A stretch of 64,000 bases of DNA from Verrucomicrobiota bacterium. GTDB lineage: Bacteria; Verrucomicrobiota; Verrucomicrobiia; Opitutales; Cerasicoccaceae. Below the pieces are notes generated by a model. The model was given only the letters and a program-made list of their open reading frames with translations, ran no database searches and had not been told where the DNA came from. The translations under genes and the position numbers were made by a program. Of the stretch, positions 32,405-64,000 are shown in pieces (within the stretch, counting starts at the first letter, position 1; every line of letters begins with the position of its first letter). Where the stretch lies: positions 32,001-96,000 of the forward strand of contig JBCBUK010000012.1 of assembly GCA_039818205.1 (NCBI GenBank), given 5' to 3'.

Positions 32405-32409
32405 GAGTA

Positions 32410-35538: not shown

Positions 35539-35550
35539 GGCAGCTCCCTA

Positions 35551-36687
35551 TTATTCAGCAGCGGGTTGTTCAGCTTGCGCCTGAGTTTCGACCTTCACCT
35601 TTGCTCCGGGTCGCGCTCGTTGAATACCGTTCACAATCAAACGGGAACCGGGCTCAAGCCCTTTCTCTAGAATGATTCCCTGATCGACGCGCGCCCCTTT
35701 GGTCACATACCGGCTCTCAACCATATTGTCCGCATTCACAACGAGAACGAAACTTCCTGCTAGGTCCTTCTGGAGGACGGCTTCCGGGACCACGATGGCT
35801 TCCTCAATATCATCGGCAAATCGCACGTTGCCAAACAATCCCGGATAAAGCAAACGAGTCGGGTTCGGGAATACTGCCCGGACCTCGATCGTGCCGGTCT
35901 CGCGATTGATCTGATTATCAACGTAATCGATGCGTCCCGCCTCTGGGTAAATGCTTCCATCGGCGAGTTGAAGGGAAACCGACAACTGCGCGCTTTTTCG
36001 CTCGGAGCGTAGCTCACGGTCACGTTGCAAATATTTCAGGAATGTGCGTTCGTCGGCATCGAAGTAAAAATACATCGGATCAAAAGAGACGACCCGTGCG
36101 AGCGAGCTATTGCTGCCAGGCCCCACCAGGTTGCCGACATCGATGAACTCGCGCGAGATCTGCCCGTCGATCGGTGATTGCACCTTAGTATATCCCAGGT
36201 CGAGCTTTGCTTGCTCCAGTGTGGCTTGAGCTTGCTCGACGCCTCCTTTGGCCAAGTCCAGGTCTGCCTCAGACTTGAGAAGCTCCAGCTCAGAAATTGC
36301 CTGGGTCGCAAACAGCTCGCGATTTCTCTGATAAGTGGTGTCTGCCAGATCGCGCTGCGCAATCGCGCTCGAGAGCTGCCCCTGGGCCGCCTTCAAATTC
36401 GCCTCATACTCGGCTGGATCAATCGTAAAGAGCAACTGCCCTTCCTCAACATCCGAGCCAGCTCTAAAATCCTGGGTCAGCAGGAAACCTTGCACCCGGG
36501 CAACAACCTCGACCTCCGATACCGCCGCGGTTTGGCCGGGCAAACTATCGTAAACCGTTACCGATTGCGGTTGCACCTCGGCCACAGTAACCGTTGGTGG
36601 TGGCGGCTCGGCGAATTCATTGCGTTTGGGGCAACCAGTCAGAAACAGGCACGCCACAAGAAGGGCAAAATAAAAGCGTATAGACAT
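35551..36687 (-). CDS. RND periplasmic adaptor (membrane fusion protein), lipoprotein
   Basis: Lipobox LTG-C, ARVQG, YTKVQSPIDG, TGTIEVRAVFPNP. Confidence 0.95.
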   Translation of the reverse strand: MSIRFYFALLVACLFLTGCPKRNEFAEPPPPTVTVAEVQPQSVTVYDSLPGQTAAVSEVEVVARVQGFLLTQDFRAGSDVEEGQLLFTIDPAEYEANLKAAQGQLSSAIAQRDLADTTYQRNRELFATQAISELELLKSEADLDLAKGGVEQAQATLEQAKLDLGYTKVQSPIDGQISREFIDVGNLVGPGSNSSLARVVSFDPMYFYFDADERTFLKYLQRDRELRSERKSAQLSVSLQLADGSIYPEAGRIDYVDNQINRETGTIEVRAVFPNPTRLLYPGLFGNVRFADDIEEAIVVPEAVLQKDLAGSFVLVVNADNMVESRYVTKGARVDQGIILEKGLEPGSRLIVNGIQRARPGAKVKVETQAQAEQPAAE

Positions 36688-37276: not shown

Positions 37277-40200
37277 TTATCCGCCGACAATCGTGACTCC
37301 AATGAATTGATTATTTCCAGCGGTGTCGAAGGCGTATTCGGTGGCACCAAAGGTGCCGATCGTGCGAACCCGATAGAAATAGGTTTTGTTAACCTCAACA
37401 TCATTATCGATGAAGCTGGCTTCGTTGTTATTGTCATCACTGGTTACGATTGTTGAAGTGCCGATCAGCTCATAACCCGTATCCGGTTGAAGGCTTCGCT
37501 CAATGTGAAAGGCACCGTCAGTGATTAGCTCACCCGTATTGGGGTCTACAACAACCGCCTCTCCCCGCCAAGTGATCTTAAGCGCAGTGCCCGACGCAAC
37601 CAAACTGGCACCGAGATTTGTAGGAGCTGCCGGCTCCACATTTCCAGATGTATCGACGACAATTCTCATAAAGCGAGAGTCGATTCCGGTAAACGGAGCA
37701 ATATCTCGAACCGTAACTCGGGCTGAATAGACGTCCTGGACATCCGTCACATTACCTTCAACCGACAATACGCGCGGATTGGAAATCAGTCCTCCAAATC
37801 CAGTGAGACTACCTTCACCATTGGGATCGATGTAAGGGGGATCAATTGTAACGATGTCCTCCCAGGGGCCATTGACGTTATCCGCTCCTTGAACGATCAA
37901 ATCGGCGTCGGTCATCCGAACATTGAAATCAAACGTAATGCTCAAGAAATCAGGATCACCCGGAAACCGGGGAATGTTTAATTGAACAAGTCCATTCTGA
38001 TTTTCCGGATCGAAGAGCAGATTGGCGTGGGTTGGGATCGAAGCCAACGCATACTCGGTCAGATTGTCATAGGCGTCGCCATCGGTATTGAGTATCGGAT
38101 TACTCAATGCATTTATGGGCTGAATCGTAACCTCACTAAACGGGGGCTGACCGACATAAACACCGTAGTTCTCCGTGCGAGAAGTCACCTGCGTCTCGTC
38201 AAAGCTGAAGAACCGACTGTCTACCGGAACAATATTGAAAAATAGCGTATCCGTCTGCGCCAAATTATCAAATGATCCAATGCGGAAAAGATTCGTCTCA
38301 CTAGACTCCAAAATAGTGTCGGTGCTATCAACAAAAAGTCGGAAGAAAAACGGGGTCCCTACTATCCCGAACTGATTCGCCTCGACCGATGCGTCATCCT
38401 CAGGGGTACCAGGCGGAATAGAACCCAATGCGACCAATATATCCCGCATGGTCGGCAAATCGACATAGTGATTAACGGAAGATCGGCTGCCGGTTGGGAA
38501 CTGCGCACTGACCTCGGGCAAGAACAAACGCTGAGGGACATCATCGTAGGTACGAATGAGAACCTCAAGGTCAACAATCAACGCATACAACTGGAGTTGA
38601 ACGTTAAACTCCTGACTTTCTGTAACCGTGCCTAAGCCAGTGTTGGTGATATCATATTTCACATAGCTACGCATTGTGGGGCGGTAAGGATAATCGTTGA
38701 AAAATCCGACCGTATTCTCGATCACCAGATTTGGCGCCCGAACAATGATAAAGCCAGGTCCAACGGTAGCCGAGTTGTTGGCCAAGGTGAAATCGCCGAT
38801 TGCGAATGAACCCTCGTGCCTGAGCAAGATGAAATAGTTACCAGCTGGAGTGCTGAATGGGAGGTGAATATCCCCTTGGAAAATTATCTGATCACCCGTG
38901 ATAATCGGGGTGCTTTGATTGGCAAAGGTTCCCAGCGGCACGTCGTCTTCGTTGCCAAACACCTGGTCGATCGACAGGTGAATATCAAGATTCGAAGAAT
39001 CCCAGTCAGGTAGGGCTTCGAAGTCTGCTCCGACATTTTTCATCGAAACGGTGATCGGCAAAACACCCGTGCCATTAGAGTCGTCCAGGATGTAGGTTCC
39101 GGGCGTGGCAACAACGTCTTGAATCGTCATGTCGATGTTACTGACAGGCACATTCGCAAAGCTGAATAGCGCCGGTGGCACGCCAACCTGAGCAATTCCA
39201 TCGATTGTGTTCGCGCTATTTTTGGTGTAGGTAAACTCAATCGTCCACGGAAGCGGTCCTGGATTCTGGTAAAGTGCACTTGCCGGATCGATGATAATCA
39301 GCTGATCGACAAAATTTGAATTAGCACCCGCCAGTTCACGCGTGAAGGTTCCGCCCCCGTTCGCAATCACAAGATTGTTATTGCTGTCGCGAATGACAAA
39401 CGAAACGATATCAGCCGTACCGTTCACATCGCTTCCAGAGTTGGACCACGGTGCTGGCAGCTGGTTGACTCCGAGTTCGACCGGGACCTCATACGTAAAG
39501 GTAACGGCGTCGCCCTGAGCCAAACCGCTGATCTCATAGAGTTGTCCCGCAGGCGCGAAGAAATTGTCCACGAGCATCCATTCACCTGGATTACCGACTC
39601 CTGTCACGATTGGTCCAGGAAGACTTGGGTCAGGATTTCCACGATTGAAGACATTGGTCTCCGGAATGGGCTGGAGAATTTCTAAGCCATCAAGGAATGC
39701 CTGAGCTTCGGCATCATCGCTATTCTTGCTAAATGTCCAACGGAAGCTACGTGGACCCGCACCAACCTGGAATGCGACCTGTTGCCAAATCGTGTCGCCG
39801 GAAATAACCGCCGATTGTGGAGTGGTGTCGAAATCGAAGGTCGGAAGCGATTGCACAACTCCATCGACCAGAAATGTCAGCGTGTCTTCGCCGGCTTCTC
39901 CAGTCGTCTTCCACCAGAACTTGACGATTGAATTCTCGGTTAAATCGTAAGTCAGGTTCAAGGCGGCAGTTTGGCCAGCAGTCATCCCAGCGGGCGACTT
40001 TACCGAACTATCGCCTACCGGAGCCGAGCTATCGGGCTCGCCGCTAAAGCTCAAACTATTCGTGTCCGGAATGAAGGCCGGGATTTCTAAATCAACCCGA
40101 GCGGTTGCGCCTGTTATTGCTGTAACCTGGTCGTAGGTCCACGTAATCGTCCACGGATAGGGATAATTGCCGGGCACGTAGAGATCGGTATTATCCGCAT

Positions 40201-42703
40201 CGATCACGATCAAAGTCGGAATATAAACCGGATCAAAGCCAGAAATCACCGCGATACTGGGATCCACGAAAACAACATCATTACCATTTGCGGCAACCAA
40301 TTGATAGGAGAGCGTGTCTGTAGTGCCGGCATTGATAAACCACGGTGCATTAACAGTCGTTGGCCCAAGCACTGTAAACGAGAAGCTCGCAGATTCACCT
40401 TGAGCAATGACAGGGCTCTCGAGGGCATTGTCATTGAACGCAAATCTGTCTTGAACTTCGCGCCATTCTCCCTGACCGCCTACATTCTGGACCTCTCCGA
40501 AATCGAAAGCAGGTGCCACTGGGTTAGGCGATTCGATCTTAACGGTTCGAAGCAAGAAATTATCTTCCGTTGCGCCCGTTTCCTCGGCAATAGCGCTTTC
40601 ACGGTTAACGACAATCACTACCAGGTAGTCTTCGCGACCCGCCTGAATATTGGTGACCGGAATATCGATTGTAAAATCAACCGAAATCGGAGGCACTGGC
40701 GGTGGATCCAACGGAGCGTTGACGCTATTTAGTCCACCGGTATACGGATTCAAAATCGGAGTTGTCCCCGGTCCGAGCACAAGTGCGTTCTCAGGCAAAG
40801 TATCAGTCAGTGGATCAAAACTAAGGTTCTCAAGCAGATAGACTTCCAGAACCGCCGCCGGATTTCCGTTTTCAACCGTGGAAGGCGGCACGATACCAAT
40901 CGTATTATTAGAAAGCGTGAACGAAACATCGGTGAAGCTGTCTCCATTCTGAATCTTGGTGCCGTTCGCAAACGTCAGATTCGACAGTCTCAAGTCCGGT
41001 TGAATAACCGTAATTAGAGTAGTTCCGACGGTTTCATCTGGTGAAGAAGCCAGCGGGGTGTCAGGCGCTGCGACTCGCGTAGTCAAGAAAAACGAACCAC
41101 TGTCAGAAAATCCGGTCAGGTTGAACGTTACGGTTTCTTCGTCACCCGGATCGAATGGAGATGTTGCTAGAGTGATCGGCGCCCCACCCTGAGCTTCCGA
41201 CAAAATATCCGATTCACGGAAATCGTCACTTGGAGCTTGAGTCAAATAAAGCTCAACAACCAATTCTCCTTGAACACTGACCGCGCCGGTATTGCTCACG
41301 GTAACGCTAACTTCGAAAGGTGCGTTGACGCCAATTGTGCTGGTATCGAGTTGCGGTGGAGTAATCGTGATCTCACGACCATCGGCCTGCGCAACCTGCG
41401 GAGTATCAAAAGTTACCGGCAGCGCGGTGCCGTTTCCAATTTGTCCGTTATTATTCGAGCCAATTGTCAAAAATGCTGTATCCCCGCCCGGTGTGACACC
41501 TTTGGTAATAGTGAAGGCAGTGGGAGTCGTTGATGACTCGTTCTCCCAGCCACCATCAACCGCAGAAAATGTGTATCCAGGAGCAATCTGTGCTGGCACA
41601 AAAATGATGCGACCTTCAATCGAAGTGTCCGAAGCCGGCTGGGCGAGCTGGGTGTCGAAATTATTACCCCAACCGAATAGCTCACCATTAGAGTTGATCG
41701 CGTAGGAATTTGCCGCGCCAGTCCCAATAGTCACCCAATTGGACGCGTTTCCAACGCGGGTAGGAGTCGAGACGGATGCGACTGGAAAACCGTTGACCGA
41801 TCCGAGACCCAACTGACCGAGGTAGTTCTCTCCATATGTGAAAACCTGACCGGAGCTATTTAACAAAACAGCGTGTCTTGACCCGGCTTCAACTGCGGTC
41901 CAATTACTTGCCGAACCCACTCGAACAGGAAGCAACAGTGGATAATCCGCAAATGGAATTCCAGAGGTCGTTGGAGGAGCACCCCAAACCCAGAGAGTAC
42001 CGTCTGAACGAATACCAATGCTAAAGTTAGTCCCAGCTGCAGCATCCATCCAAGTCGGTGCAGCTGGATTGTCCGGATCTACCAAAATAGGCTCTTCGAT
42101 AACCGTATCGTCAAATGTTTCTGAGAACGGGTCGAATAATTGGCCAATGCCAAGCTGACCAGCACCGTTGTCACCCCATGCCCACAAAGCGCCTGATGAA
42201 TCAATCGCGAAAGTATGGGCTGGACCAGCCGCAACATCCTGGATGCTTAGTCCAAGCGCTCCAGGGAAAACCACCTGGACTGGATTGCTCGTCGACGTTG
42301 GGAGGGTCCCGGTGCCGAGCTGACCGGCATTATTCTGCCCCCATGCATACAGGGTGCCAGTTGAGTCGTTTGCAGATCCGCTATTGCTAATACCGAAAGC
42401 AAAATTGGGCCCAGCTGAGGTCAAAATAAAGTTCGCAGCTAGAGTAACGGGCGTCGGAACGGGTTGTGGCGTATTAGTATTACCCTGACCCAATTGGCCG
42501 ACATCGTTTTTACCCCAAGATCGCAGCGTACCGGAAGTGCTACCGTCGGTAATTGCAACCGATGTGGCAAACTCTTCACCGGCTGCCACGATGCTCGCCG
42601 CGTGCAGACTGCCCTGAAGGGAAACCAGCGCGGCGATTATCGAAACTCCGAAGGCCGCACGATTAAATTTTAAAGCGGGCATTGGAAAATTGAGAGATTT
42701 CAT
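37277..42703 (-). CDS. Large secreted/surface protein: RCC1 repeats, CARDB/Ig-like domains, repeated beta-sandwiches, C-terminal FN3
   Basis: Signal peptide; WGKNDVGQLGQG, WGQNNAGQLGTG, WGDNGAGQLGIG repeats; PDLRLSNL and APNLVIEN CARDB-like starts; PAAPTNL...YFYRVR. Confidence 0.85.
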   Translation of the reverse strand: MKSLNFPMPALKFNRAAFGVSIIAALVSLQGSLHAASIVAAGEEFATSVAITDGSTSGTLRSWGKNDVGQLGQGNTNTPQPVPTPVTLAANFILTSAGPNFAFGISNSGSANDSTGTLYAWGQNNAGQLGTGTLPTSTSNPVQVVFPGALGLSIQDVAAGPAHTFAIDSSGALWAWGDNGAGQLGIGQLFDPFSETFDDTVIEEPILVDPDNPAAPTWMDAAAGTNFSIGIRSDGTLWVWGAPPTTSGIPFADYPLLLPVRVGSASNWTAVEAGSRHAVLLNSSGQVFTYGENYLGQLGLGSVNGFPVASVSTPTRVGNASNWVTIGTGAANSYAINSNGELFGWGNNFDTQLAQPASDTSIEGRIIFVPAQIAPGYTFSAVDGGWENESSTTPTAFTITKGVTPGGDTAFLTIGSNNNGQIGNGTALPVTFDTPQVAQADGREITITPPQLDTSTIGVNAPFEVSVTVSNTGAVSVQGELVVELYLTQAPSDDFRESDILSEAQGGAPITLATSPFDPGDEETVTFNLTGFSDSGSFFLTTRVAAPDTPLASSPDETVGTTLITVIQPDLRLSNLTFANGTKIQNGDSFTDVSFTLSNNTIGIVPPSTVENGNPAAVLEVYLLENLSFDPLTDTLPENALVLGPGTTPILNPYTGGLNSVNAPLDPPPVPPISVDFTIDIPVTNIQAGREDYLVVIVVNRESAIAEETGATEDNFLLRTVKIESPNPVAPAFDFGEVQNVGGQGEWREVQDRFAFNDNALESPVIAQGESASFSFTVLGPTTVNAPWFINAGTTDTLSYQLVAANGNDVVFVDPSIAVISGFDPVYIPTLIVIDADNTDLYVPGNYPYPWTITWTYDQVTAITGATARVDLEIPAFIPDTNSLSFSGEPDSSAPVGDSSVKSPAGMTAGQTAALNLTYDLTENSIVKFWWKTTGEAGEDTLTFLVDGVVQSLPTFDFDTTPQSAVISGDTIWQQVAFQVGAGPRSFRWTFSKNSDDAEAQAFLDGLEILQPIPETNVFNRGNPDPSLPGPIVTGVGNPGEWMLVDNFFAPAGQLYEISGLAQGDAVTFTYEVPVELGVNQLPAPWSNSGSDVNGTADIVSFVIRDSNNNLVIANGGGTFTRELAGANSNFVDQLIIIDPASALYQNPGPLPWTIEFTYTKNSANTIDGIAQVGVPPALFSFANVPVSNIDMTIQDVVATPGTYILDDSNGTGVLPITVSMKNVGADFEALPDWDSSNLDIHLSIDQVFGNEDDVPLGTFANQSTPIITGDQIIFQGDIHLPFSTPAGNYFILLRHEGSFAIGDFTLANNSATVGPGFIIVRAPNLVIENTVGFFNDYPYRPTMRSYVKYDITNTGLGTVTESQEFNVQLQLYALIVDLEVLIRTYDDVPQRLFLPEVSAQFPTGSRSSVNHYVDLPTMRDILVALGSIPPGTPEDDASVEANQFGIVGTPFFFRLFVDSTDTILESSETNLFRIGSFDNLAQTDTLFFNIVPVDSRFFSFDETQVTSRTENYGVYVGQPPFSEVTIQPINALSNPILNTDGDAYDNLTEYALASIPTHANLLFDPENQNGLVQLNIPRFPGDPDFLSITFDFNVRMTDADLIVQGADNVNGPWEDIVTIDPPYIDPNGEGSLTGFGGLISNPRVLSVEGNVTDVQDVYSARVTVRDIAPFTGIDSRFMRIVVDTSGNVEPAAPTNLGASLVASGTALKITWRGEAVVVDPNTGELITDGAFHIERSLQPDTGYELIGTSTIVTSDDNNNEASFIDNDVEVNKTYFYRVRTIGTFGATEYAFDTAGNNQFIGVTIVGG

Positions 42704-42845: not shown

Positions 42846-44939
42846 CTATTCGCTGTCGCTTTCCTCTTTTTCGTCATTGTCACCAGCGAGGGTGCTGACA
42901 CGCTCCAGCAATTCGAGCTGAGCCTTGTCGTTATCAAATTTGGTCTGCAGCGCCATAATGTCTTCGTAGGCCTGAGCTTGATCCGAGGGCAATGTATAGC
43001 CTGGAATCTCATTTTCGAGGATTCCCATACGGTATAGGACGCGGGGATCGATGATGTCCTTGTAAGTCGTTCCATCAGCACTGAGCGTTTTCGCGGTAAT
43101 GAAGATAACCAAATTCCGCGTTTGTGTCTGCTTCGTAGTCGATTGGAAAAGCTCACCAAGCAATGGAATCTCGCTCAGGTAGGGAACACTACTATCAGCA
43201 TCGGTAGTCAGGGTCTCCATTAAGCCACCAATCGCTAGCGTAAAACCATCCTTAAGGATCACATTACTTTGTGTCTCAGTGGTTTGGATGATTGGGATCT
43301 CAGCGCCACCGGCTCCACCGAAGCTCGTAACACGGTCACTCCGTGACAGTTGCGGGCGGACATTCAAGCGAATGAATCCAGCACTGTTTACATTGGGAGT
43401 AACCGAGAGAATGGTACCAATGTCTTTATATTCAAAACCGCTAACCTCGAAAGACCCAGTCTCGTCATTGAACGTGTAACTAGGAATCGGAAACTGCTCA
43501 CCAATAACCAATTTAGCTTCTTCACCATCGAGAGTCACGAGAGTCGGGTTATTGACCAGCTTGGCATCCGTATTGGTTTCCAAGAAACTCAAGATCACAT
43601 TGAATGCATCGGCTGAGAACACCGCCGTGTCTGAACGAGTTACCTCGTCAATCCAGTTTAGGTCACCAAGAACCGAGGTGTTAAATGCGTTGTTGGCAAT
43701 ATTTTGCAAGGTATTCGAGGTGCTCGAATTAAAGCCACCAGGAATCTGGAAGTTGTTGCTCGAGCTGTTGGTCGAGTTCGCCTGACGGTCGCGAGTCGTA
43801 TCGAACTCGATACTGTTATCGGAAGCACGTCCGGACTCAGAAGTATACTCCCGATTGAACGGTCCAGCGGTCAATTGATACCCCTGTAACGAAGCCCAGT
43901 TCACCCCGATGTCGCTACGGTCTTCATCATTGATCTCGATGAACTTGGACTCGATCATGACCTGAGGGTTCGGACGGTCGAGACGCTCGATGATCGCCTG
44001 GATGTCATTCATCCGTGATGGGCGCTCCGTAATGAGCAGAGCATTGGTGCGCTGATCAACCTGAACTCGGCCACCAGCCGCGGAATCAATGAGGGGAGCC
44101 AAGGATGACTGCAGGCTGTTGGCGACTGCGTAGTTAATCAGGAAAACGCGTGTCTCTGTTTGTTCGTTGGTCAACTCCTCGAGACTTTTAATTTTGATGA
44201 TGTTGCGGTCTTCAATGTAGGTGTAGCCGAGAGGCTCGAGCACAACTTCAAAAACCTGGCGCCAAGATACATTCCGCAACTTGATGGATGTGCTGCCAAC
44301 CAAGGTATCTGGAATCACCACATTCAGGTCGTAGAGGTCCGCGACGTTGCGGATGATCGTACGAACTTCCTCGTCGGGAAAATCAACCGAAATGGTGTCG
44401 TCCTGCCCCATAAGAGCTTCCTGACCTCCGCTTTCGCTGGGGAACTCAACGGTTGCGCTGCCCGCCTCACCTGGGAAATCAATCTCCATCGCAGGAATCT
44501 CGACGGTCTTCTCTTCGACCGTTGCGTTACCACTGTCGTCCACCACCTTTTCTAAGACTGGCTCTGACTCTGTAATCGGCCGAACCGTGAGTCCAGAATC
44601 GTCGCCGGTGTAAGCGGTCGTGCCAGCATCGTCTGCGGGAGTCGAACCTCCTGTGGCAGAATCTGAACTGCTAGCTGCGGAACCGGCACTACTTGATGCC
44701 GAGTCTTGATTGGACGGAGGAGTCGTGCCCTCCAAGGTTGATCCCGCGTATGGCGGATTCGTATTAGGCGACGGGATCGAGGTTCCGATCTCATCCTCGG
44801 CGTCCACGTCAGTGGGCTCGACGGATGGGTCTTCAGCCGCGGTCGTGCCGGAATCGGACTGCGCAATGCTTGCAGGAGTCAGGGCAATGCCGGAGATGAC
44901 GGCCAGCATTGCGAGGAGCAAGATGTTCAAGAGCTTCAT
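42846..44939 (-). CDS. Secretin (PilQ/GspD family)
   Basis: ISVDFPDEEVRTII, VDQRTNALLI, PQVMIESKFIE, PTLVTLDGEEA, VPYLSEIPLLGELF, NLVIFIT. Confidence 0.93.
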   Translation of the reverse strand: MKLLNILLLAMLAVISGIALTPASIAQSDSGTTAAEDPSVEPTDVDAEDEIGTSIPSPNTNPPYAGSTLEGTTPPSNQDSASSSAGSAASSSDSATGGSTPADDAGTTAYTGDDSGLTVRPITESEPVLEKVVDDSGNATVEEKTVEIPAMEIDFPGEAGSATVEFPSESGGQEALMGQDDTISVDFPDEEVRTIIRNVADLYDLNVVIPDTLVGSTSIKLRNVSWRQVFEVVLEPLGYTYIEDRNIIKIKSLEELTNEQTETRVFLINYAVANSLQSSLAPLIDSAAGGRVQVDQRTNALLITERPSRMNDIQAIIERLDRPNPQVMIESKFIEINDEDRSDIGVNWASLQGYQLTAGPFNREYTSESGRASDNSIEFDTTRDRQANSTNSSSNNFQIPGGFNSSTSNTLQNIANNAFNTSVLGDLNWIDEVTRSDTAVFSADAFNVILSFLETNTDAKLVNNPTLVTLDGEEAKLVIGEQFPIPSYTFNDETGSFEVSGFEYKDIGTILSVTPNVNSAGFIRLNVRPQLSRSDRVTSFGGAGGAEIPIIQTTETQSNVILKDGFTLAIGGLMETLTTDADSSVPYLSEIPLLGELFQSTTKQTQTRNLVIFITAKTLSADGTTYKDIIDPRVLYRMGILENEIPGYTLPSDQAQAYEDIMALQTKFDNDKAQLELLERVSTLAGDNDEKEESDSE

Positions 44940-56031: not shown

Positions 56032-57255
56032 ATGGCGATGCCACGCAAATACCACGAACCGATTGATGCCCCAGCTGGAAGCTTTGCTGAGGCCTTTGCT
56101 CGTCTGCCCCTGAACCAGCTAACCGAGCAGGCCTACTCGACCGATGCCGCTCGTGTGGATACCATTCTCAAGCGTGGGCAGGCACGGACACTGGAGGATT
56201 TCGCCGCGTTGATCTCACCGGCGGGCACGGAGCGTCTCGAAGCTCTTGCCGCACACTCCCAGCAGATTACCCAACGAAACTTTGGCAAAGCAATCCGCCT
56301 GTTTGCTCCGATGTATTTGTCCAATGAATGCGTGAATGTTTGCAAATATTGCGGCTTCTCGCGGCACAACGACATCCCCCGCATAACCATTCCCGTTGGT
56401 AAGGTCGAGGAGCAGTCTAGGATGCTTAAACGACAGGGATTTCGCTCGCTGCTGCTTGTGGCTGGTGAGCATCCGAAGTGGGTTTCTAACGGCTACGTCG
56501 AAGATTGCATCCGCAAAACACTTCCCCACATGCCGGCCATCAGCATCGAACTCGGCCCGATGGAAGCGGAAGAGTATCGGCCATTGGTTAGTGCCGGAGC
56601 CGAAGCGCTGATTGTCTATCAGGAAACGTACCATCAACCGACCTACGAGGAGCTCCATACGGCGGGACCGAAAAAGTATTTTGCATGGCGGATGGACACC
56701 CCTGAACGCGGCTATGCCGCTGGATTCCGCCGACTGGGCATCGGGGCGCTCTTGGGACTGCATGATTGGCGTTACGAAGCCTTAGCGGTGGCCGCTCACG
56801 CCCAGTTTCTCCTGCGCAAGTGCTGGAAGGCACAAGTCTCAGTCAGCCTGCCACGCATGCGCCCGGCGGCGGGTGGATGGCAGCCCAATCCGGAATATTC
56901 GATGAGCGACCGTGAGCTTGTGCAAACCATTTGCGCACTACGGATGCTTTTGCCCCACGTTGGTGTCACGCTTTCAACTCGGGAGCCTCCGGCGTTGCGC
57001 AATGGCTTAGTTCCGCTCGGTGTTACCTTGATGAGCGCCGGAAGTTCCACGGAGCCCGGCGGCTACGATCATTTTGACGAATCCCAATGGACGCCGACTC
57101 GGGAGCAACCGGGCGAGCAGTTCAACATCGCCGACGAGCGTTCCCCTGGCGCCATTGCAGCGATGATCCGTAGTCAGGGATACGAGGCCGTCTGGAAGGA
57201 CTTCGACCAAGCCTTGGTATCCGACAGTTCAATGGCCAAGCCCGTCGAAGCCTAA
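56032..57255 (+). CDS. thiH: 2-iminoacetate synthase (radical SAM)
   Basis: APMYLSNECVNVCKYCGF, VYQETY, SLPRMRP, LSTRE, SAGSSTEPGGY, QFNIADER. Confidence 0.92.
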   Translation: MAMPRKYHEPIDAPAGSFAEAFARLPLNQLTEQAYSTDAARVDTILKRGQARTLEDFAALISPAGTERLEALAAHSQQITQRNFGKAIRLFAPMYLSNECVNVCKYCGFSRHNDIPRITIPVGKVEEQSRMLKRQGFRSLLLVAGEHPKWVSNGYVEDCIRKTLPHMPAISIELGPMEAEEYRPLVSAGAEALIVYQETYHQPTYEELHTAGPKKYFAWRMDTPERGYAAGFRRLGIGALLGLHDWRYEALAVAAHAQFLLRKCWKAQVSVSLPRMRPAAGGWQPNPEYSMSDRELVQTICALRMLLPHVGVTLSTREPPALRNGLVPLGVTLMSAGSSTEPGGYDHFDESQWTPTREQPGEQFNIADERSPGAIAAMIRSQGYEAVWKDFDQALVSDSSMAKPVEA

Positions 57256-58049
57256 GACAAAATCGCGCGATTGAGTTTGCCGGACACGAATCCTTCTTCG
57301 TCGATCTCAACTCGCTTAAACCCGACATCACTGAAGTCGGATTGGATCTGCTCCAAGTGGCTCTTCAGTTCCGTAAGGCGGTCCTGAGGCGCCTCGATCC
57401 GGGCAAGCTCGCCAAAGTGGCGAACTCGGTTGATGGGGAAGCCCATTGAGGTCAGTACGGCCTCCGCCCGCTCGATTTGCTTGAGTTTTTCGAAGGTAAT
57501 TCGTTCGCCGTAGGGAACTCGCGAGGCTAGGCAAGGGCTCGCTGGTTTATCCCAGCAGGCTAGCTTGAAGTGCACCGCGATCTCGCGAACATCTGCCTTG
57601 TTCAATCCGCATTCTAGTAGCGGCGAGCGCACTTTAAACTCGGACGCCGCCTTCATCCCAGGCCGGTAGTCACCGGAATCATCCGCATTGGCGCCATTCA
57701 AGATCCACCAATCCGGGTAGCGCTGCTGGATTCCCGCAATATCGTCGTAGAGTGTATGCTTACAAAAGTAGCAGCGATTCTCGGGATTGTTGAAATAGTT
57801 GGGGTTTTCCAGCTCCCCGGTAATGATTACTTCCAGCGGAATGTCATGCTCTCGAGCAAAATCTCGGGCAAGCTCCAGGTCCGAAAGTTTGAGCGCGGGC
57901 GAAGCTGACGTTACCGCAAGAGCCCGATCCCGGGACAAGAAATGCCGAGCCAAAAAGGCGACCAAGGAGCTATCAACGCCGCCAGAGAATGCCACCAACG
58001 CGCCTGGGCACTCGGAAAACCAATTTTTAAGCGCGTCTAGGTGTTGCAT
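57252..58049 (-). CDS. larE: NPN cofactor sulfur insertase LarE
   Basis: PP-loop SGGVDS, RCYFCK, DYRPG, WDKPASPCLASRVPYG, RVRH. Confidence 0.93.
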   Translation of the reverse strand: MQHLDALKNWFSECPGALVAFSGGVDSSLVAFLARHFLSRDRALAVTSASPALKLSDLELARDFAREHDIPLEVIITGELENPNYFNNPENRCYFCKHTLYDDIAGIQQRYPDWWILNGANADDSGDYRPGMKAASEFKVRSPLLECGLNKADVREIAVHFKLACWDKPASPCLASRVPYGERITFEKLKQIERAEAVLTSMGFPINRVRHFGELARIEAPQDRLTELKSHLEQIQSDFSDVGFKRVEIDEEGFVSGKLNRAILS

Positions 58050-58124
58050 GAACGATCATCATAGATTTGTTTTGCGAACTGTCAACCGGGACACCCATTC
58101 GATCCGACCCGAACTTTTTTGACT

Positions 58125-59468
58125 ATGCGAACCCTCTACTATCAATGCCCCGCTGGTATCAGCGGTGACATGAATCTCGGCGCCATGGTCGCTCTGGGTG
58201 TGGACCCAGCTCGACTGGAAAGTGAACTCCAGAAAATATCGCTCGATGGCTGGTCTATCGCGTTTAGCAATGACGTACGCGGTGGGATCACCGGTATCCG
58301 CTGCGATGTCGTCCTCGACGAATCGGGGGAGCATTCCCACGAGCATGCTCATACCCATACCCATGAGCACAAACATGGAGATCATAGCCACAGTCACGAG
58401 CACGAACATGGAGATCATGGCCACTCACATTCCCACGATCACGGAGACGGGCATTCTCATAGTCACGGACTTGGGCATCATCATCGGACGTTTCGCGACA
58501 TCTGTGAAATGATTGAAGCCTCCGAATTGGACAACGCCATAAAAGCCGACGCAATTGCTGTTTTTGAATCGCTTGCCAAGGCCGAAGGGGCCGTCCACGG
58601 AATGCCGCCCGAAGCGGTACATTTCCACGAGGTTGGGGCCGTTGACTCGATTATCGATATCGTCGGCGCCGCAATTTGCTGGGAGCTACTAGGGATCGAC
58701 CAGGTGAGCTGCGGCACCCTCGAGCTTGGTGGCGGAACGGTGCAGTGTGCACACGGGCGCATGCCGGTGCCCGCTCCTGCGACCGCTAAGCTCGTGCAAG
58801 ACTTACCCGTATCCATAGGCGCAACTAACAAGGAGGCAACCACGCCGACTGGTGCGGCCCTGCTTGTGGGCAAGAGTGCGCAGTTTGGCCTGAGAATCAG
58901 TGGCAAGCAGGTCGCCAATGGCGTCGGCATTGGGCAACGCCAAGACCCCAATCTTTCCAACGTCGTTTATGCCTCGATCATTGAGTCCGACGAGGCAACC
59001 GACACCCAAGACACCGTAACCGAGTTAGCCGCGAACCTCGACGACATGACCAGTGAGGCAGTCGCGTTCCTGTGCGATCGCTTGCTGGACGCGGGCGCAT
59101 TGGACGTTTGGCAAAGCGCCGCGACCTTCAAAAAAGGCCGCGCCGGGTTTATCGTGCACGCACTCGCTGACTCGCAATCAATTGACACCATTGAGGAAGT
59201 CTTTTTCGCCCACAGCACGACTTTGGGCATTCGCCAGCAAGAGTGGCACCGCGCCAAACTCCAGCGAGAGACCATCGAGGTCGAAACCGAATGGGGCCCG
59301 GTGCGCATCAAGCAAGCAATGCGCGATGGCGAGGTCGTCCGGGTTAAGCCGGAGTTCGAAGACTGCAAGCGGATCGCAGAGGAGCAGGGAATTTCACTGA
59401 TGCACTTTCAGCAATTGCTGGCATCTCAGTTATTTGAATATGTCGATGAGGAGGAAGATGATGGCTGA
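58125..59468 (+). CDS. larC: NPN cofactor nickel insertase LarC
   Basis: GISGDM, His-rich tract, AEGAVHG...VHFHEVGAVDSIIDI, AHGRMPVPAPAT, NLDD, KKGR, KPEFED. Confidence 0.95.
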   Translation: MRTLYYQCPAGISGDMNLGAMVALGVDPARLESELQKISLDGWSIAFSNDVRGGITGIRCDVVLDESGEHSHEHAHTHTHEHKHGDHSHSHEHEHGDHGHSHSHDHGDGHSHSHGLGHHHRTFRDICEMIEASELDNAIKADAIAVFESLAKAEGAVHGMPPEAVHFHEVGAVDSIIDIVGAAICWELLGIDQVSCGTLELGGGTVQCAHGRMPVPAPATAKLVQDLPVSIGATNKEATTPTGAALLVGKSAQFGLRISGKQVANGVGIGQRQDPNLSNVVYASIIESDEATDTQDTVTELAANLDDMTSEAVAFLCDRLLDAGALDVWQSAATFKKGRAGFIVHALADSQSIDTIEEVFFAHSTTLGIRQQEWHRAKLQRETIEVETEWGPVRIKQAMRDGEVVRVKPEFEDCKRIAEEQGISLMHFQQLLASQLFEYVDEEEDDG

Positions 59469-60195
59469 TGTACGATCCATTCTTGAACGCTTGCAAAGCG
59501 GCGAGCTGAGCGTCGAACAAGCTACCACCGAACTCCAAGGCTTCGAAGACCTGGGACATAGCCGCGTTGACCATCAGCGCGAGCAACGCAACGGTGCGCC
59601 CGAAGTAATCTTTGGTCAGGGCAAAACACCCGAACAGATCGTCGATATCGTCGGAAGCTTATCCGCCCGTGGTTCCAATGTGCTGGTTACTCGAGTTCAG
59701 GACGATGCGGTTGAGCCTCTGCTCAAGCAGTTTCCAGGCGCCAAGCACCATGCGATTGCGCGTCTCGTTTCACTTGAGACCTCCCCACCTGACCGCGCAG
59801 CGCACACCATTGCGATGGTTTGCGCCGGGACCTCTGACTTGCCGGTCGCCGAAGAAGCGCGATTAACCGCTGAGTTCTACGGCAATCCAGTACTGCAAGT
59901 TTATGACGCCGGTGTGGCTGGGCTACACCGGCTGCTCGCAAGCATTGACCAGATTCGACAGTGCCGAGTCGTGGTCGTGGTTGCCGGGATGGAAGGTGCT
60001 CTTCCCAGCGTTGTGGGCGGCCTAGTGGATGCCCCGGTTATCGCGGTGCCCACGAGCGTCGGATATGGCGCGAATTTTGGTGGGCTTTCAGCCCTCCTCG
60101 GTATGCTCAACAGCTGTGCAAGTGGCCTGAGTGTCGTGAACATCGACAACGGTTTCGGCGCAGGCTATTTAGCCAATCGCATTAACCGCCTGTAG
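59458..60195 (+). CDS. larB: NPN cofactor carboxylase/hydrolase LarB
   Basis: PEVIFGQGKT, AGTSDLPVAEEA, DAGVAGLHRL, AGMEGAL, PTSVGYG, MLNSCASG, VNIDNGFGA. Confidence 0.95.
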   Translation: MMADVRSILERLQSGELSVEQATTELQGFEDLGHSRVDHQREQRNGAPEVIFGQGKTPEQIVDIVGSLSARGSNVLVTRVQDDAVEPLLKQFPGAKHHAIARLVSLETSPPDRAAHTIAMVCAGTSDLPVAEEARLTAEFYGNPVLQVYDAGVAGLHRLLASIDQIRQCRVVVVVAGMEGALPSVVGGLVDAPVIAVPTSVGYGANFGGLSALLGMLNSCASGLSVVNIDNGFGAGYLANRINRL

Positions 60196-60631
60196 CTTGG
60201 AGACGCTTCTTAAGAAAGCGGTCTTTGTTTTCAATTTTCCAAAACTCCCAGCCAAGGTGGTGGTAGAAGCCGACCGCGCGTTTGGTTTCGTCGGTGTAGG
60301 TAGTCAGCCAAATTTCCTGATGCCCTTCTGAGGCGAGCCATTGCTCAACCATGCCGATGAGCTTGCCTCCAATACCGCGACCCTCGTATTCCTCCAGGAC
60401 GGCTATCACCCACATCTCTCCGGTAGAGCGGTTACCAATGGCAAAGCCGACAACCTGACCATCGGTCTCGCATAGCCATCCTTTGTGTGTATCGGTCAAC
60501 ATTTCGGAAACGGAGGCTCGCGTGATGCCCATACTCTCAAGGTCTTCACGACCAGTTGGAGTACTCCATGTGCGAACCCGCACATCGAAAATTTCTGGCA
60601 TATCAGCCGAAATGATCTTCCTGAACTCCAT
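60182..60631 (-). CDS. GNAT family N-acetyltransferase
   Basis: AVLEEYEGRGIGGKL, AVGFYHHLGW. Confidence 0.88.
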   Translation of the reverse strand: MEFRKIISADMPEIFDVRVRTWSTPTGREDLESMGITRASVSEMLTDTHKGWLCETDGQVVGFAIGNRSTGEMWVIAVLEEYEGRGIGGKLIGMVEQWLASEGHQEIWLTTYTDETKRAVGFYHHLGWEFWKIENKDRFLKKRLQATGG

Positions 60632-60717
60632 AGAAACTTCTGCTATTAAATAGGCATCAATAGTCACTTTGTATCAACATCAATACAAAACGAAGGATGT
60701 CAGTGTGATCGAAAAAC

Positions 60718-61722
60718 CTACGCTTTTCGGTGATGGCAGCAGCTTTCGTAGATCTCGCCGCCGTGCTTCATCGCATAGTCATCGAAGTGCTTGGCGTCGA
60801 AGTTCGCCGCAAACTCTTCGCGCTCCAATGGCGTCATCGGCTTGACCGGTGATGCCGCGACAGCGGCTTCCACGTAGGGCACTTTGTCCATTCCGACGAC
60901 CTGCGTGCAGACCTCGGGATAGCTCAACGAGTAGCTGATGATCTCGCTGATGTTCGTCTTGCCATGGAGCTGAGTACGGCGGCTACCGCCAAAACCCTTC
61001 ATGCCAAGAACAGCGATATCGTTTTCTTTACAAAGTGGCATCACGCGCTTCTCAAACTCACGAGATTTCAGCGCGCCGACTATCGAAACGGGCATCAAGG
61101 TCGCGTCCCAGTCGTAGCCGCCCTTAATCAAATCGACATGAATTTGCGGGTCCGTGTGGCCGGTGAAACCCGTGTAGCGAATCTTGCCCTGCTCCTTGGC
61201 GAGGTCGAGCGCAGCCAATGCACCATCGGACTCGTAAGCACGTTCGGCATCGTCGCCGGAGACATGGTGAAGCATCCACAAATCAATATGGTCAGTCTTC
61301 ATGCGGCGGAGGGAGTCTTCCAACATCTTCATCGCACCCGTTTTATCGTCGGAGTACTTACCACTATGGTAGATGCAGAATTTCGTCATGAGGAAGTATT
61401 TGTCGCGCGCAAATCGATCGAGTGCGACACCCATATACTCCTCGGCCTCGCCTCCGTGGTAATCCCAGGCGTTGTCGTAAAAGTTGATACCGAGGTCCAT
61501 CGCCTTGTCGACAATATCGTTGGCCTCCGTTTGGGAACCCGACAGGTAAAGCGTGTGCCCTCCCAAGCCTACCACGGTCAGTAGGTCATCGTGCTTGCCG
61601 AACTTGCGTTTGGGTATCGTGGTTTGCGCGGCGGCATCGGCCAATGCCTGCCCGGTTGATGCGCCCAAAACAGCGGCGGTTCCTAACGAAGACTTGAGGA
61701 AATGACGTCGGGACAAGCTCAT
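60718..61722 (-). CDS. Aldo/keto reductase with twin-arginine signal peptide
   Basis: SRRHFLK Tat motif with ALA cleavage site; GLGG, FYDNAWDY, MTK, SLRRMKTDHIDLWMLHH, GKIRYTGFTGH. Confidence 0.9.
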   Translation of the reverse strand: MSLSRRHFLKSSLGTAAVLGASTGQALADAAAQTTIPKRKFGKHDDLLTVVGLGGHTLYLSGSQTEANDIVDKAMDLGINFYDNAWDYHGGEAEEYMGVALDRFARDKYFLMTKFCIYHSGKYSDDKTGAMKMLEDSLRRMKTDHIDLWMLHHVSGDDAERAYESDGALAALDLAKEQGKIRYTGFTGHTDPQIHVDLIKGGYDWDATLMPVSIVGALKSREFEKRVMPLCKENDIAVLGMKGFGGSRRTQLHGKTNISEIISYSLSYPEVCTQVVGMDKVPYVEAAVAASPVKPMTPLEREEFAANFDAKHFDDYAMKHGGEIYESCCHHRKA

Positions 61723-61753: not shown

Positions 61754-62185
61754 TCAACATGAAGCCGCAGGTCGCGTCCCCTTCAACGGAAACAGCTTCG
61801 AAAAGAAACTACGGTTCCGGGCGACGACCCAATATCCCGCTTCAATCATCCAGGCAAACGGTGGAATGTGGTAGTACCAGCGGGCCGCCCAAGACCACTT
61901 GGGAGTGCGTTCCAAGGCGACGAGCACTGCCTCACCCGCTCGAAGGACCCGCCCATGTTCATCCAAATAGTGAACCGCGTAAGACAAGGCTGCCTCATCG
62001 AGCTCCGGAAATCGCTCCAACATCTCTTGGTAGGGCGCGAAGTCGACCCGGCTACCCGTTCGCTGCTGAATCCAAGCCGCACACCGGCAACAGAAGCGAC
62101 AGTCCCCGTCCCATAGCAAAATGGGGCGCTCGGGCGGATTTGCGACGATGGTAGGGAAAACCTGCATCATATTAAAAGATGCCAC
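61754..62185 (-). CDS. DCC1-like thiol-disulfide oxidoreductase (DUF393)
   Basis: WDGDCRFC, FAPYQ, YWVVARNR. Confidence 0.88.
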   Translation of the reverse strand: MASFNMMQVFPTIVANPPERPILLWDGDCRFCCRCAAWIQQRTGSRVDFAPYQEMLERFPELDEAALSYAVHYLDEHGRVLRAGEAVLVALERTPKWSWAARWYYHIPPFAWMIEAGYWVVARNRSFFSKLFPLKGTRPAASC

Positions 62186-62296
62186 AGAGGCTTCAAAAAT
62201 TCAAATGAACCATTAATCTACTATCCGAAGATAGGTATCACAAGTTTGATCATTGCCCAATTTTTGCATTCACTGGAAATACAGTCCGCAACTCCC

Positions 62297-64000
62297 ATGC
62301 ACCCCTTTCTCCCGAAAATCTGGACTTGGCTCGCCTCGATGAGCGCGGCGGCGCTTGCGCTGGCGCCCGCCGAAACCACTGCTGCTCAAGACGATGCATT
62401 TCCGCTGGATGAGCATGGCCATCTAAACTGGTCGGATTTCCGAGTTTTGATGGCGGAGAACTGTTTCGATTGTCACGGCGGATTTTTGAAGGAAGGTGGC
62501 GTTGACCTTTTTGCCATGCGGGAGGAATCCTCAATCGTCGAAAACCCTGAGCTTTGGGAATCGGTGTCCAAAGCGCTGCGGATTCACTACATGCCACCTG
62601 CCGATCACCGCAACTTTCCCACGCACCGCCGAGAAGCGATGGTGCGCACCGTCGATGCAGAGTTACTCGCTGCCGCCGAACAAGAACAAGCCGACCACGC
62701 GTCGTTGCGTCGCCTCAATCGCAATGAATTTGCCAACACCCTGCGCGATCTTCTTTTGGTCGACTATGCGGTCGAAGATGAGCTGCCGCCCGACGACTCA
62801 GGCTACGGCTTTGACAACAACGCCGACGTCCTTCCGGTTTCGCCATTGCTCTTGGAGAAGTATTTGAACGTGGCCGCGGACGTTGGTGAGCGCGCGGTGC
62901 CGCTGCCCATTGAGCCGCGCCAGGTTGATGTCTATGGCATCGAGATGGCTGGTTACAATGGCACCAACCGCAACAACGCTTATGTGGTGTACTCCGATGA
63001 GCAGCGAAGCTCGGCCCGCTACGCGTTCAAACATGTTGGCCAGGGTGACTACGAGGCGCGCATTTTCCTCGCCGGTCAGCAAGCAGGCGATGAACCCTGC
63101 CGTGCCCGGGTTGTGATCAACGGCAAATCGATGGGGGATTTCGTAGTCGAGGCCGAGGATATTGAAGACCCCTTGGTCGCCACCGTCCGCTTCACGGTCC
63201 GCAATGATCGACCCGCCTATTTCCGTATCGACCTGCTGAACGACTACTACAACAAAGACGCGCCGGAAGGAGAACCCAATGACCGAAACCTCATCGTAGG
63301 AGGCATGGAGATTGAGGGCCCGTTTCAAACCGAAGAAAACCTATACACGCCATTCCTGAAACGACATTTCGGGCAGATCCCCAATGAGGCACCCGAGGAT
63401 GTTCTGCGGGATGGAATCTGGCGATTTGCCAGCCGCGCCTATCGACGCCCAGCCGCGGCCGAGGAGATCAGCTCGCTCTGGGCCGTTTACACCGAAGAGA
63501 ATAAACGCACGAACAATCCACGGCGCGCCCTACGCGCCGTTGTCGATTCAGCACTGTCGTCCCCAAATTTCATTTTTCGCTGGGAGCCCAAGCACTCGCG
63601 TGATGAGTTCGCACTGGCGAGTTGGCTCTCTTACTTCATCTGGGGATCCATGCCCGACGACCAACTCTTTGACTTGGCCAAGGATGGCAACTTGCGGGCA
63701 AACCTGGAGAGTGAGATCAAGCGCATGTTATCCGACCCACGGGCGAAGGCATTGACCAATCATTTCGCGGCTCAATGGCTACAGTTTCGCGATCTAGATC
63801 AGTCTCATCCGGACCGGAAGAAATATCCACAGTTCAGCTACGGGCTCCGGCACTCGATGAAACAGGAGACCCAGCGTTTCTTTGAAGACTTGATCAAAAA
63901 AGACCGCTCCATCATGCGGGTACTCGATGCCGATTACACGTTTGCCAATAAACAGCTCGCCGAATTCTACGGCTTGTCCGAAGCTCCCGAAAAGGGCTTT
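62297..64000 (+). CDS. Planctomycete/Verrucomicrobia cytochrome c + DUF1587/DUF1595/DUF1592-type protein, runs off window end
   Basis: Translated by hand (absent from ORF track): signal peptide, CFDCH heme motif, MPP, LRRLNRNEFANTLRDLL, LPPDDSGYGFDN, LSYFIWGSMPD, FAAQWLQ. Confidence 0.88.
   Translation, partial: MHPFLPKIWTWLASMSAAALALAPAETTAAQDDAFPLDEHGHLNWSDFRVLMAENCFDCHGGFLKEGGVDLFAMREESSIVENPELWESVSKALRIHYMPPADHRNFPTHRREAMVRTVDAELLAAAEQEQADHASLRRLNRNEFANTLRDLLLVDYAVEDELPPDDSGYGFDNNADVLPVSPLLLEKYLNVAADVGERAVPLPIEPRQVDVYGIEMAGYNGTNRNNAYVVYSDEQRSSARYAFKHVGQGDYEARIFLAGQQAGDEPCRARVVINGKSMGDFVVEAEDIEDPLVATVRFTVRNDRPAYFRIDLLNDYYNKDAPEGEPNDRNLIVGGMEIEGPFQTEENLYTPFLKRHFGQIPNEAPEDVLRDGIWRFASRAYRRPAAAEEISSLWAVYTEENKRTNNPRRALRAVVDSALSSPNFIFRWEPKHSRDEFALASWLSYFIWGSMPDDQLFDLAKDGNLRANLESEIKRMLSDPRAKALTNHFAAQWLQFRDLDQSHPDRKKYPQFSYGLRHSMKQETQRFFEDLIKKDRSIMRVLDADYTFANKQLAEFYGLSEAPEKGF

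Follow-up and report, generated by a model that had tools for sequence, protein, structure and literature searches.

Organization of the locus

We describe a nickel-pincer cofactor locus and an adjacent aldo-keto reductase (AKR) at positions 57252-61722 of a 64,000-nucleotide stretch from a Verrucomicrobiota bacterium (contig JBCBUK010000012.1); this whole stretch is referred to as the window. Five open reading frames (ORFs) span the locus, and their coordinates in the ORF list of the window agree with those of the first-pass annotation, which had been made from the sequence alone. The genes of the locus and the main sites of the AKR are as follows.

57252-58049, minus strand: larE, ATP-dependent sulfur insertase of nickel-pincer cofactor synthesis (265 aa; TIGR00268)
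58119-59468, plus strand: larC, CTP-dependent nickel-inserting cyclometallase, LarC1 and LarC2 fused (449 aa; PF01969)
59434-60195, plus strand: larB, nicotinic acid adenine dinucleotide (NaAD) carboxylase/hydrolase (253 aa; NF033503)
60182-60667, minus strand: GNAT acetyltransferase (161 aa; PF00583, 61 bits)
60718-61722, minus strand: NphT-type AKR (P0001), predicted nickel-pincer user (334 aa; PF00248)
61639-61722, minus strand: predicted twin-arginine signal peptide, AKR residues 1-28 (SRRHFLK, hydrophobic stretch, A-L-A before D29)
61156-61158, minus strand: codon of AKR His189, aligned with the nickel-coordinating His144 of NphT (FTGH versus ITGH)
60997-60999, minus strand: codon of AKR Lys242, in register with the cofactor-tethering Lys200 of NphT

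The family scores of all five proteins were far above chance. As the first-pass annotation had claimed, larE, larC and larB are complete, with full-length family matches at 57252-60195. LarE matched TIGR00268 with 287.7 bits (cut-off 150) over profile positions 3-259 of 259, and its translation includes an SGGVDS P-loop, a CYFC motif and a later PC, which together make up a CXXC-C triad. According to the available text of PMC9283937, this triad marks the catalytic [4Fe-4S] type of LarE as opposed to the sacrificial form with a single Cys. Judging from these residues, the LarE of the window is the catalytic [4Fe-4S] form and not the sacrificial one. It should be noted that TIGR00268 carries the name 'sacrificial sulfur transferase' despite the CXXC-C triad of this protein.

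LarC matched PF01969 with 430.5 bits over profile positions 1-372 of 375, and the NCBIfam models for LarC1 and LarC2 (TIGR00299, 190.8 bits; NF052512, 135.1 bits) both fell on this one ORF. LarB matched NF033503 with 301.9 bits (cut-off 175) over profile positions 1-208 of 209, the match beginning at residue 45 of the ORF. As called, larB overlaps larC by 35 nt, and its real start may lie downstream of the listed TTG.

No gene of the LarA-family racemases accompanies this set, as had also been claimed for the window. The profiles Lar_N (PF09861) and LarA_C (PF21113) gave 0 matches each both in the window and in the whole assembly (4.85 Mb, 66 contigs, 99.97% complete), and control genomes gave positives. 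The ornithine cyclodeaminase family, the large subunit of [NiFe]-hydrogenase and the urease alpha subunit likewise had 0 matches each in the genome. Based on its sequence, the AKR of the window is itself not a LarA. It lies one GNAT gene away from larB and its translation begins with MSLSRRHFLK, in agreement with the first-pass annotation.

Relationship of the AKR to NphT

A nickel-pincer AKR is already in print. NphT from Alicyclobacillus cellulosilyticus was described by Semersky et al. (Nat Chem, June 2026; PMC13524815), and its structure is available as PDB 9YEB. According to that paper, NphT carries a nickel-pincer mononucleotide (NPMN) bound covalently via K200 (+450 Da), H144 is on the nickel, and the tetrad D47/Y52/K75/H106 performs a redox-neutral intermolecular hydride transfer in which sugars disproportionate to lactone and alditol. 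The study searched from LarC and retained those clusters in which LarB and LarE occur and no LarA lies within 20 ORFs. AKRs co-occurred in 427 instances in this LarC-anchored search, and 798 homologues with the NphT His/Lys motif were counted. Such a search design would catch loci like the one at 57252-61722. The first-pass annotation had put forward the nickel-pincer cofactor as a possible replacement of NADP(H) in this AKR and had mentioned recent reports of AKRs linked to this cofactor. Such a report does exist, and because the NphT paper appeared in June 2026, the central idea of that annotation is not new.

The AKR of the window matched PF00248 with 105.4 bits, residues 52-249 corresponding to profile positions 3-197 of 291 only. 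NphT (9yeb_A) was the best of its 42 PDB sequence matches, with an E-value of 2.6e-18. In the HMMER alignment, D83, Y88, K114 and H152 align with D47, Y52, K75 and H106 of NphT, T187 with T142, and H189 with the nickel ligand (chain numbering in 9YEB is that of the paper plus 3). The alignment ends with M241 opposite I199 of NphT, and in both proteins a Lys comes directly after. Among 47 homologues with 49-72% identity, Y88, K114, H152, G188, H189, M241 and K242 were invariant; position 83 is Asp in the window protein and Glu in the consensus of this alignment. A [FILVM][TS]GH motif was found in 119 of the 120 close homologues. In a broader set of 94 full-length sequences, taken from the best 150 cluster representatives of a library of 1.84 billion proteins together with the query, 93 had both His and Lys. 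In every sequence-level comparison with the NphT family that could be run, the AKR thus comes out as a predicted member. The current annotation of these genes is plain 'aldo/keto reductase'.

The AlphaFold2 model of the AKR (mean pLDDT 85.3, pTM 0.84) has the (beta/alpha)8 AKR fold, with low confidence for signal residues 1-19, the loop 244-248 just past K242 and the last 16 residues. All top Foldseek matches were AKRs, with TM-scores by target length of up to 0.76-0.78.

The protein ends in a tail rich in Cys and His.

60721-60768, minus strand: Cys/His-rich C-terminal tail of the AKR, KHGGEIYESCCHHRKA (…YESCCHHRKA), pLDDT below 50

Within the last 22 residues of the 120 close homologues, at least one Cys was present in 98 proteins, at least two in 68 and a CC pair in 57, and just 9 of 97 broader representatives had at least two. 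One possibility is that this tail binds metal or forms a disulfide close to the nickel site, which is solvent-exposed.

Co-occurrence and gene order

The distribution of the AKR was analyzed across 301 evenly sampled genomes of the phylum, that of the window among them. Matches to P0001 with E <= 1e-25 were called NphT-like AKRs, and those with E <= 1e-100 close orthologues. NphT-like AKRs were found in 32 genomes, all of them larC-positive, and in none of the 126 larC-negative genomes; larC occurs in 175 of the 301. Close orthologues were present in 15 genomes, and a Lar_N match was found in one of these only (G005). In the family f3, the AKR and larC occur in one and the same set of 14 genomes out of 21, and Lar_N had no match in any of the 21. 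In the genera g6, g10 and g17, which are the varying ones, the AKR and larC are present or absent together. In the taxonomic order of the window genome, larC occurs in 17 genomes. The AKR is present in 15 of these, and the remaining two (G069 and G168) have Lar_N matches.

The gene order was assessed by tblastn with the window proteins. The arrangement larE(-), larC(+), larB(+), AKR(-) was found in 10 of 12 fetched 20-kb neighbourhoods. The window genome has the same order with the GNAT gene inserted, and in the genome G273 larB adjoins the AKR at a contig end. The association of this AKR subfamily with larBCE that the first-pass annotation had wanted checked across genomes, in co-occurrence as well as in neighbourhood, was supported by the 32 larC-positive genomes and by this order.

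In addition to this sample, a pattern-based scan of GTDB species genomes yielded 80 related loci, which belong to Verrucomicrobiota, Acidobacteriota, Planctomycetota and other groups. The His and Lys residues of these proteins cannot be counted as evidence, since they are present by construction of the patterns. In 50 further genomes behind AKR loci outside Opitutales (other Verrucomicrobiota, Acidobacteriota, Planctomycetota and others), larC was found in 46. In ten Acidobacteriota/Planctomycetota loci (L061, L068, L069, L071, L084, L087, L090, L103, L113 and L119), a tandem second AKR with the same truncated Pfam coverage stands beside the matched one; such pairs may be partners or recent duplicates.

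These data bear on a very improbable alternative, in which the AKR would be a conventional nicotinamide enzyme that leaves the cytoplasm carrying NAD(P)(H) tightly bound, like glucose-fructose oxidoreductase (GFOR), and the lar genes would serve another, unrecognised client. Tat-exported sugar oxidoreductases such as GFOR and the aldose-aldose oxidoreductase (AAOR) do exist (available text of PMC4628093), the closest folds in the library are NAD(P)H-dependent AKRs, and the best NCBIfam matches, far below threshold, are NAD(P)H reductases. However, the positions at which the protein departs from canonical AKRs are exactly the His and Lys of NphT, and both are invariant, whereas the signal-less AKRs of the same genome keep canonical motifs. 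Furthermore, larC accompanies such AKRs in 32/32 and 46/50 genomes versus 175/301 overall, the AKR abuts larB in 12 loci, and the genome contains no member of the LarA or ornithine cyclodeaminase families as another client.

No substrate could be suggested from the neighbouring genes: Pfam scans of 117 and 131 flanking ORFs gave no enzyme family in common. It is conceivable, and in our estimate quite unlikely, that the AKR binds NPAD or non-covalent NPMN and carries out another chemistry, such as periplasmic aldehyde detoxification or electron transfer to a periplasmic acceptor. The available text of the NphT paper leaves NPAD or non-covalent binding open for homologues, and its authors state that the physiological substrate is unknown (PMC13524815). 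In addition, the AKR loci have no conserved sugar-specific neighbour, and the Cys/His tail is unexplained. Nevertheless, LarB has a full-length equivalog match and the catalytic tetrad is intact, and covalent NPMN is favoured because the tethering Lys is invariant.

Twin-arginine motif and predicted export

The motif S4-R-R-H-F-L-K10 at the N-terminus of the AKR corresponds to the twin-arginine translocation (Tat) consensus S/T-R-R-x-F-L-K (available text of PMC3383694) and is followed by a hydrophobic stretch and a cleavage-type A26-L-A28. The alignment with NphT starts at residue 7 of that protein opposite residue 39 of the AKR, which marks the first 30-odd residues as added sequence. R5, R6 and F8 were invariant in the 47 homologues, and the remainder of the signal was variable. 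The RR motif was found in 114 of the 120 close homologues; the other six begin inside or just past the signal region and therefore look like late start calls. It was also present in 64 of the 94 full-length representatives. By a stricter rule (motif, hydrophobic stretch and a start codon nearby), a signal was found in 55 of 77 complete related loci. A TatC gene (PF00902, 158 bits) is located on contig 4 at 151221-151877; of the Tat components, the search covered TatC.

Two further AKRs of the genome are of interest here. A 337-aa protein from contig 14 (113142-113876, minus strand; L035:1288-2301) starts with MERRKFL, carries SGH and MK, and again has NphT as its best PDB match (2.7e-16). With this second Tat-signal AKR, which shares that His and Lys, it is probable that larBCE has several exported enzymes as clients. 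A third candidate with a Tat signal, of 390 aa, is encoded on contig 1 (about 83514-84230, minus strand; L039:1282-2454, minus strand), and MAFFT places His and Lys at the respective positions. We dropped it as a firm NphT type, NphT not being its best PDB match, and regard it as a possible one. The three signal-less AKRs of the genome have canonical residues at the His and Lys positions, with motifs of the S-T-Y or S-P-L type where the AKR of the window has T-G-H and M-K.

An unlikely alternative is that the AKR uses the nickel-pincer cofactor and is not a soluble periplasmic protein, its N-terminus being an uncleaved membrane anchor or non-functional. Its place of action would then be the membrane or, as for NphT, the cytoplasm. 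NphT itself has no signal; 22 of the 77 related loci also lack one, and the signal was judged by motifs only, the Pfam TAT_signal match falling below the cut-off. On the other hand, the fit of SRRHFLK to the Tat consensus, followed by the hydrophobic stretch and A-L-A, the invariance of R5, R6 and F8 amid a variable signal and the presence of TatC argue for export.

Search of the literature gave no publication joining the terms nickel-pincer and twin-arginine. The main text of the NphT paper has no mention of twin-arginine, periplasm, secretion, export, extracellular or localisation. The 12 of its 17 supplement files that were searched have no mention of twin-arginine, signal peptide, Verrucomicrobia, Opitutales-type names or Lentimonas, and in them 'periplasm' occurs only in an unrelated list of nickel enzymes. 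In the available parts of the publications on characterised nickel-pincer enzymes (the LarA family, NphT and an ornithine cyclodeaminase), no export signal is mentioned. Literature on twin-arginine periplasmic keto reductases appeared, by titles and abstracts, to be unrelated.

Co-inherited membrane protein

A membrane protein of 283-285 aa, resembling the drug/metabolite transporter (DMT)/EamA family, is encoded by a gene which, in 9 fetched loci, is convergent with larE. The assignment is based on weak Pfam matches and on an Atlas feature score of 0.98 and a structural TM of 0.86 to EamA clusters. In the window genome, the orthologue (67% identical) is located on contig 2. The orthologues were placed as follows.

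76412-77263 of contig 2, plus strand (L033:1498-2355): DMT-family protein of the window genome
L021:5862-6713: further DMT orthologue
L059:2330-3178: further DMT orthologue

In the sample of 301 genomes, the DMT protein (E <= 1e-30) was found in 14, and these are 14 of the 15 genomes with a close AKR orthologue (G138 being the exception); it was absent from all 286 others. In the genome G054, the DMT gene adjoins the lar genes and the AKR is 1 Mb away. Considering the DMT/EamA gene as local synteny only, with the orthologue of the window genome on another contig, was dropped given 14/15 versus 0/286. Moreover, in four loci from other Verrucomicrobial lineages that have no lar gene nearby, a DMT orthologue (39-45% identity) adjoins the AKR, and in three of these a conserved 109-aa membrane protein with four helices is encoded between them. 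Among 12 further Verrucomicrobial genomes with this AKR subfamily, 9 contain the DMT protein (E <= 1e-39). The Acidobacteriota and Planctomycetota genomes gave just two weak matches near 1e-20.

In six Verrucomicrobial loci, the gene immediately downstream of the AKR encodes the 109-aa membrane protein, which has no Pfam match; the DMT gene comes next in three of these. The six positions are:

L052:5092-5421
L053:6916-7245
L054:6998-7327
L056:2748-3077
L058:6997-7326
L064:730-1059

The simplest guess, and the weakest of our inferences, is that the DMT protein moves the substrate or product of the AKR. The beta subunits of K channels have the AKR fold, and by analogy the AKR might be a non-catalytic or regulatory partner of the DMT protein, which we find scarcely credible. 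The presence of the DMT protein in 14 of 15 genomes with the AKR subfamily and in none of the others, together with the adjoining genes in the four loci of other lineages, would agree with such a partnership. However, one would expect the same co-inheritance just as much if the AKR were an enzyme with a transported substrate or product, and the catalytic tetrad and cofactor residues of the AKR are invariant.

Neighbouring genes

The 69-bp spacer between the divergent larE and larC, the GNAT gene and the flanks of the locus were also inspected. Features additional to those listed above are given here.

58058-58085, minus strand: promoter-like site (TTGACA, 16 nt, TATGAT) in the divergent larE/larC spacer
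61754-62185, minus strand: DCC1-like thiol-disulfide oxidoreductase (PF04134, 55.5 bits)

The promoter-like site agrees with the consensus at 11 of 12 positions; three such sites were found in the region and 3.0 were expected from shuffled sequences, which makes it weak evidence for a promoter. The GNAT gene is on the same strand as the AKR, 50 nt downstream of it. A GNAT gene stands beside the AKR in this genome only, that is, in 1 of 20 AKR loci by tblastn and in 0 of the 12 fetched neighbourhoods, and is therefore outside the conserved module. The DCC1-like gene, 31 nt upstream of the AKR and on the same strand, is also beside the AKR in this genome only (tblastn) and is not conserved with the module. 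Based on conservation across the AKR loci, neither gene has a demonstrable tie to the nickel-pincer AKR system.

The upstream flank consists of housekeeping genes: thiH, which overlaps the end of larE by 4 nt, prmA, purN, a heptose adenylyltransferase-like gene, dnaJ and grpE. Downstream, the DCC1-like gene is followed by a gene for a PSD/PSCyt-domain protein (62246-64000, plus strand), which runs off the end of the window and includes DUF1587, DUF1592 and DUF1595 (PSD) domains, a planctomycete-type cytochrome c and a CBM60-like module. At a distance from the locus, an 1808-aa RCC1-repeat protein (37277-42703, minus strand) has as neighbours a secretin gene (42846-44939) and four ORFs that match no Pfam family, and a resistance-nodulation-division efflux operon at 29975-36687 is located upstream of this region. 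No RNA dataset was listed for the stretch; its sole match was a marine metagenome DNA run, possibly the source sample.

Proposed function

Based on the above results, we consider it probable that the AKR is both a nickel-pincer client of larBCE and a Tat-exported periplasmic enzyme. The first-pass annotation had proposed the same, namely that the nickel-pincer cofactor may take the place of NADP(H) in this AKR and make it a self-contained periplasmic hydride-transfer enzyme. This reading has computational support because the protein has the His and Lys of NphT, NphT is its best relative, larC co-occurs with it, the gene order is conserved, LarA is absent, and the RR motif and TatC are present.

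We suggest the following pathway. In the cytoplasm, LarB, the [4Fe-4S]-type LarE and LarC would assemble the cofactor out of NaAD, sulfur and nickel. Lys242 would then make the thioamide tether and His189 would complete the nickel coordination, as in NphT. The holo-AKR, folded and already loaded, would be exported by Tat to the periplasm, and passage of the holo-enzyme would be feasible because the cofactor would be covalently bound. In the periplasm, which is free of NAD(P)H, Tyr88, Lys114, Asp83 and His152 would, by analogy with NphT, catalyse a redox-neutral hydride exchange between alcohols and carbonyls, likely sugars. The DMT-family protein encoded on contig 2 may carry the substrate or product.

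Several observations weigh against this proposal. On the side of the cofactor, the lead of NphT among the PDB matches is small (69.7 bits versus 64.4 bits for AKR11C1, 1ynp), and the equivalence of the tethering Lys is a matter of register and conservation with no aligned column, the alignment ending at residue 241. Foldseek placed NAD(P)H-dependent AKRs at the top of its PDB matches, and only this type was returned because 9YEB is missing from the fold library, which stops at 2026-04-08. Profile searches for the nickel transporters NicO and CbiM gave 0 matches each in the genome. As for the genomic link, a lar gene was found within 6 kb in only 6 of the 80 related loci, one of these being a weak LarE-like match. 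The other five are Opitutales-type, and three of them are already in the phylum sample, so that lar adjacency is confined to Opitutales-type genomes. Four of the 50 related-AKR genomes have no larC; these are metagenome bins of which the completeness is not established. It should also be noted that the co-occurrence counts overstate the support because relatives are not independent. Finally, concerning export, the Pfam TAT_signal score of 21.4 bits is just below the cut-off of 22.7, no NCBIfam Tat model matches the AKR at E <= 0.001, and with 22 signal-less loci among the 77, export is not family-wide.

The puzzle of larBCE without larA was largely answered by NphT in 2026, its physiological role and the reason for replacing NAD(P)H remaining open (available text of PMC13524815). 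If the Tat signal works, most members of the branch would be periplasmic, as it is carried by 55 of the 77 related loci and by 64 of the 94 full-length representatives. A periplasmic location would give a simple rationale, in that a hydride carrier fixed covalently to its enzyme can leave the cytoplasm together with it and does not depend on a nicotinamide pool. More broadly, it is possible, though doubtful at present, that the locus represents a large branch of extracytoplasmic nickel-pincer enzymes in which a loaded AKR, Tat and a dedicated DMT transporter act together on sugars or aldehydes. If this were true, a tethered nickel cofactor would take hydride chemistry into a compartment without a nicotinamide pool, which would be a physiological reason for the replacement of NAD(P)H. 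The co-inherited DMT transporter would provide a handle for finding the natural substrate.

Comparison with known systems

The proposed enzyme shares with the LarA racemases and epimerases a cofactor from LarB, LarE and LarC, a Lys tether and a His on the nickel. However, its fold is unrelated, and LarA carries out an intramolecular racemisation and not an intermolecular hydride transfer (available text of PMC13524815). With ordinary NAD(P)H-dependent AKRs it has the fold and the catalytic tetrad in common. Those enzymes have no NphT His/Lys pair, and the Pfam model of the family covers only the first two thirds of the window AKR.

The closest known system is NphT, with which the AKR shares the fold, the nickel-ligand His, the tethering Lys, the D/Y/K/H tetrad and a genomic tie to larB, larC and larE in the absence of LarA. 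The similarity is detectable over residues 39-241 of the window AKR only. Unlike NphT, which by the alignment has no signal, the window AKR has an additional 28-residue twin-arginine signal. It also has the Cys/His-rich C-terminal tail, which is confined to its close subfamily, and a co-inherited DMT membrane protein. The source of NphT is an Alicyclobacillus, whereas the nearest named relatives of the window organism are Verrucomicrobiota. An AKR of the NphT type is thus already published, and what we did not find in print is the export signal and the co-inherited DMT protein.

In the location and reaction proposed for the AKR, GFOR and AAOR, which belong to the Gfo/Idh/MocA family, are the nearest analogues. 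Both hold NADP tightly bound. They carry Tat signals in Zymomonas (GFOR) and Caulobacter (AAOR), and AAOR converts xylose to xylonate and xylitol (available text of PMC4628093), a reaction of the same type as the sugar disproportionation by NphT. As is proposed for the AKR, they are periplasmic enzymes that exchange hydride between sugars and need no free cofactor. The two solutions differ in their architecture: GFOR and AAOR are Rossmann-fold proteins, whereas the AKR of the window is a TIM barrel with a predicted covalent nickel cofactor.

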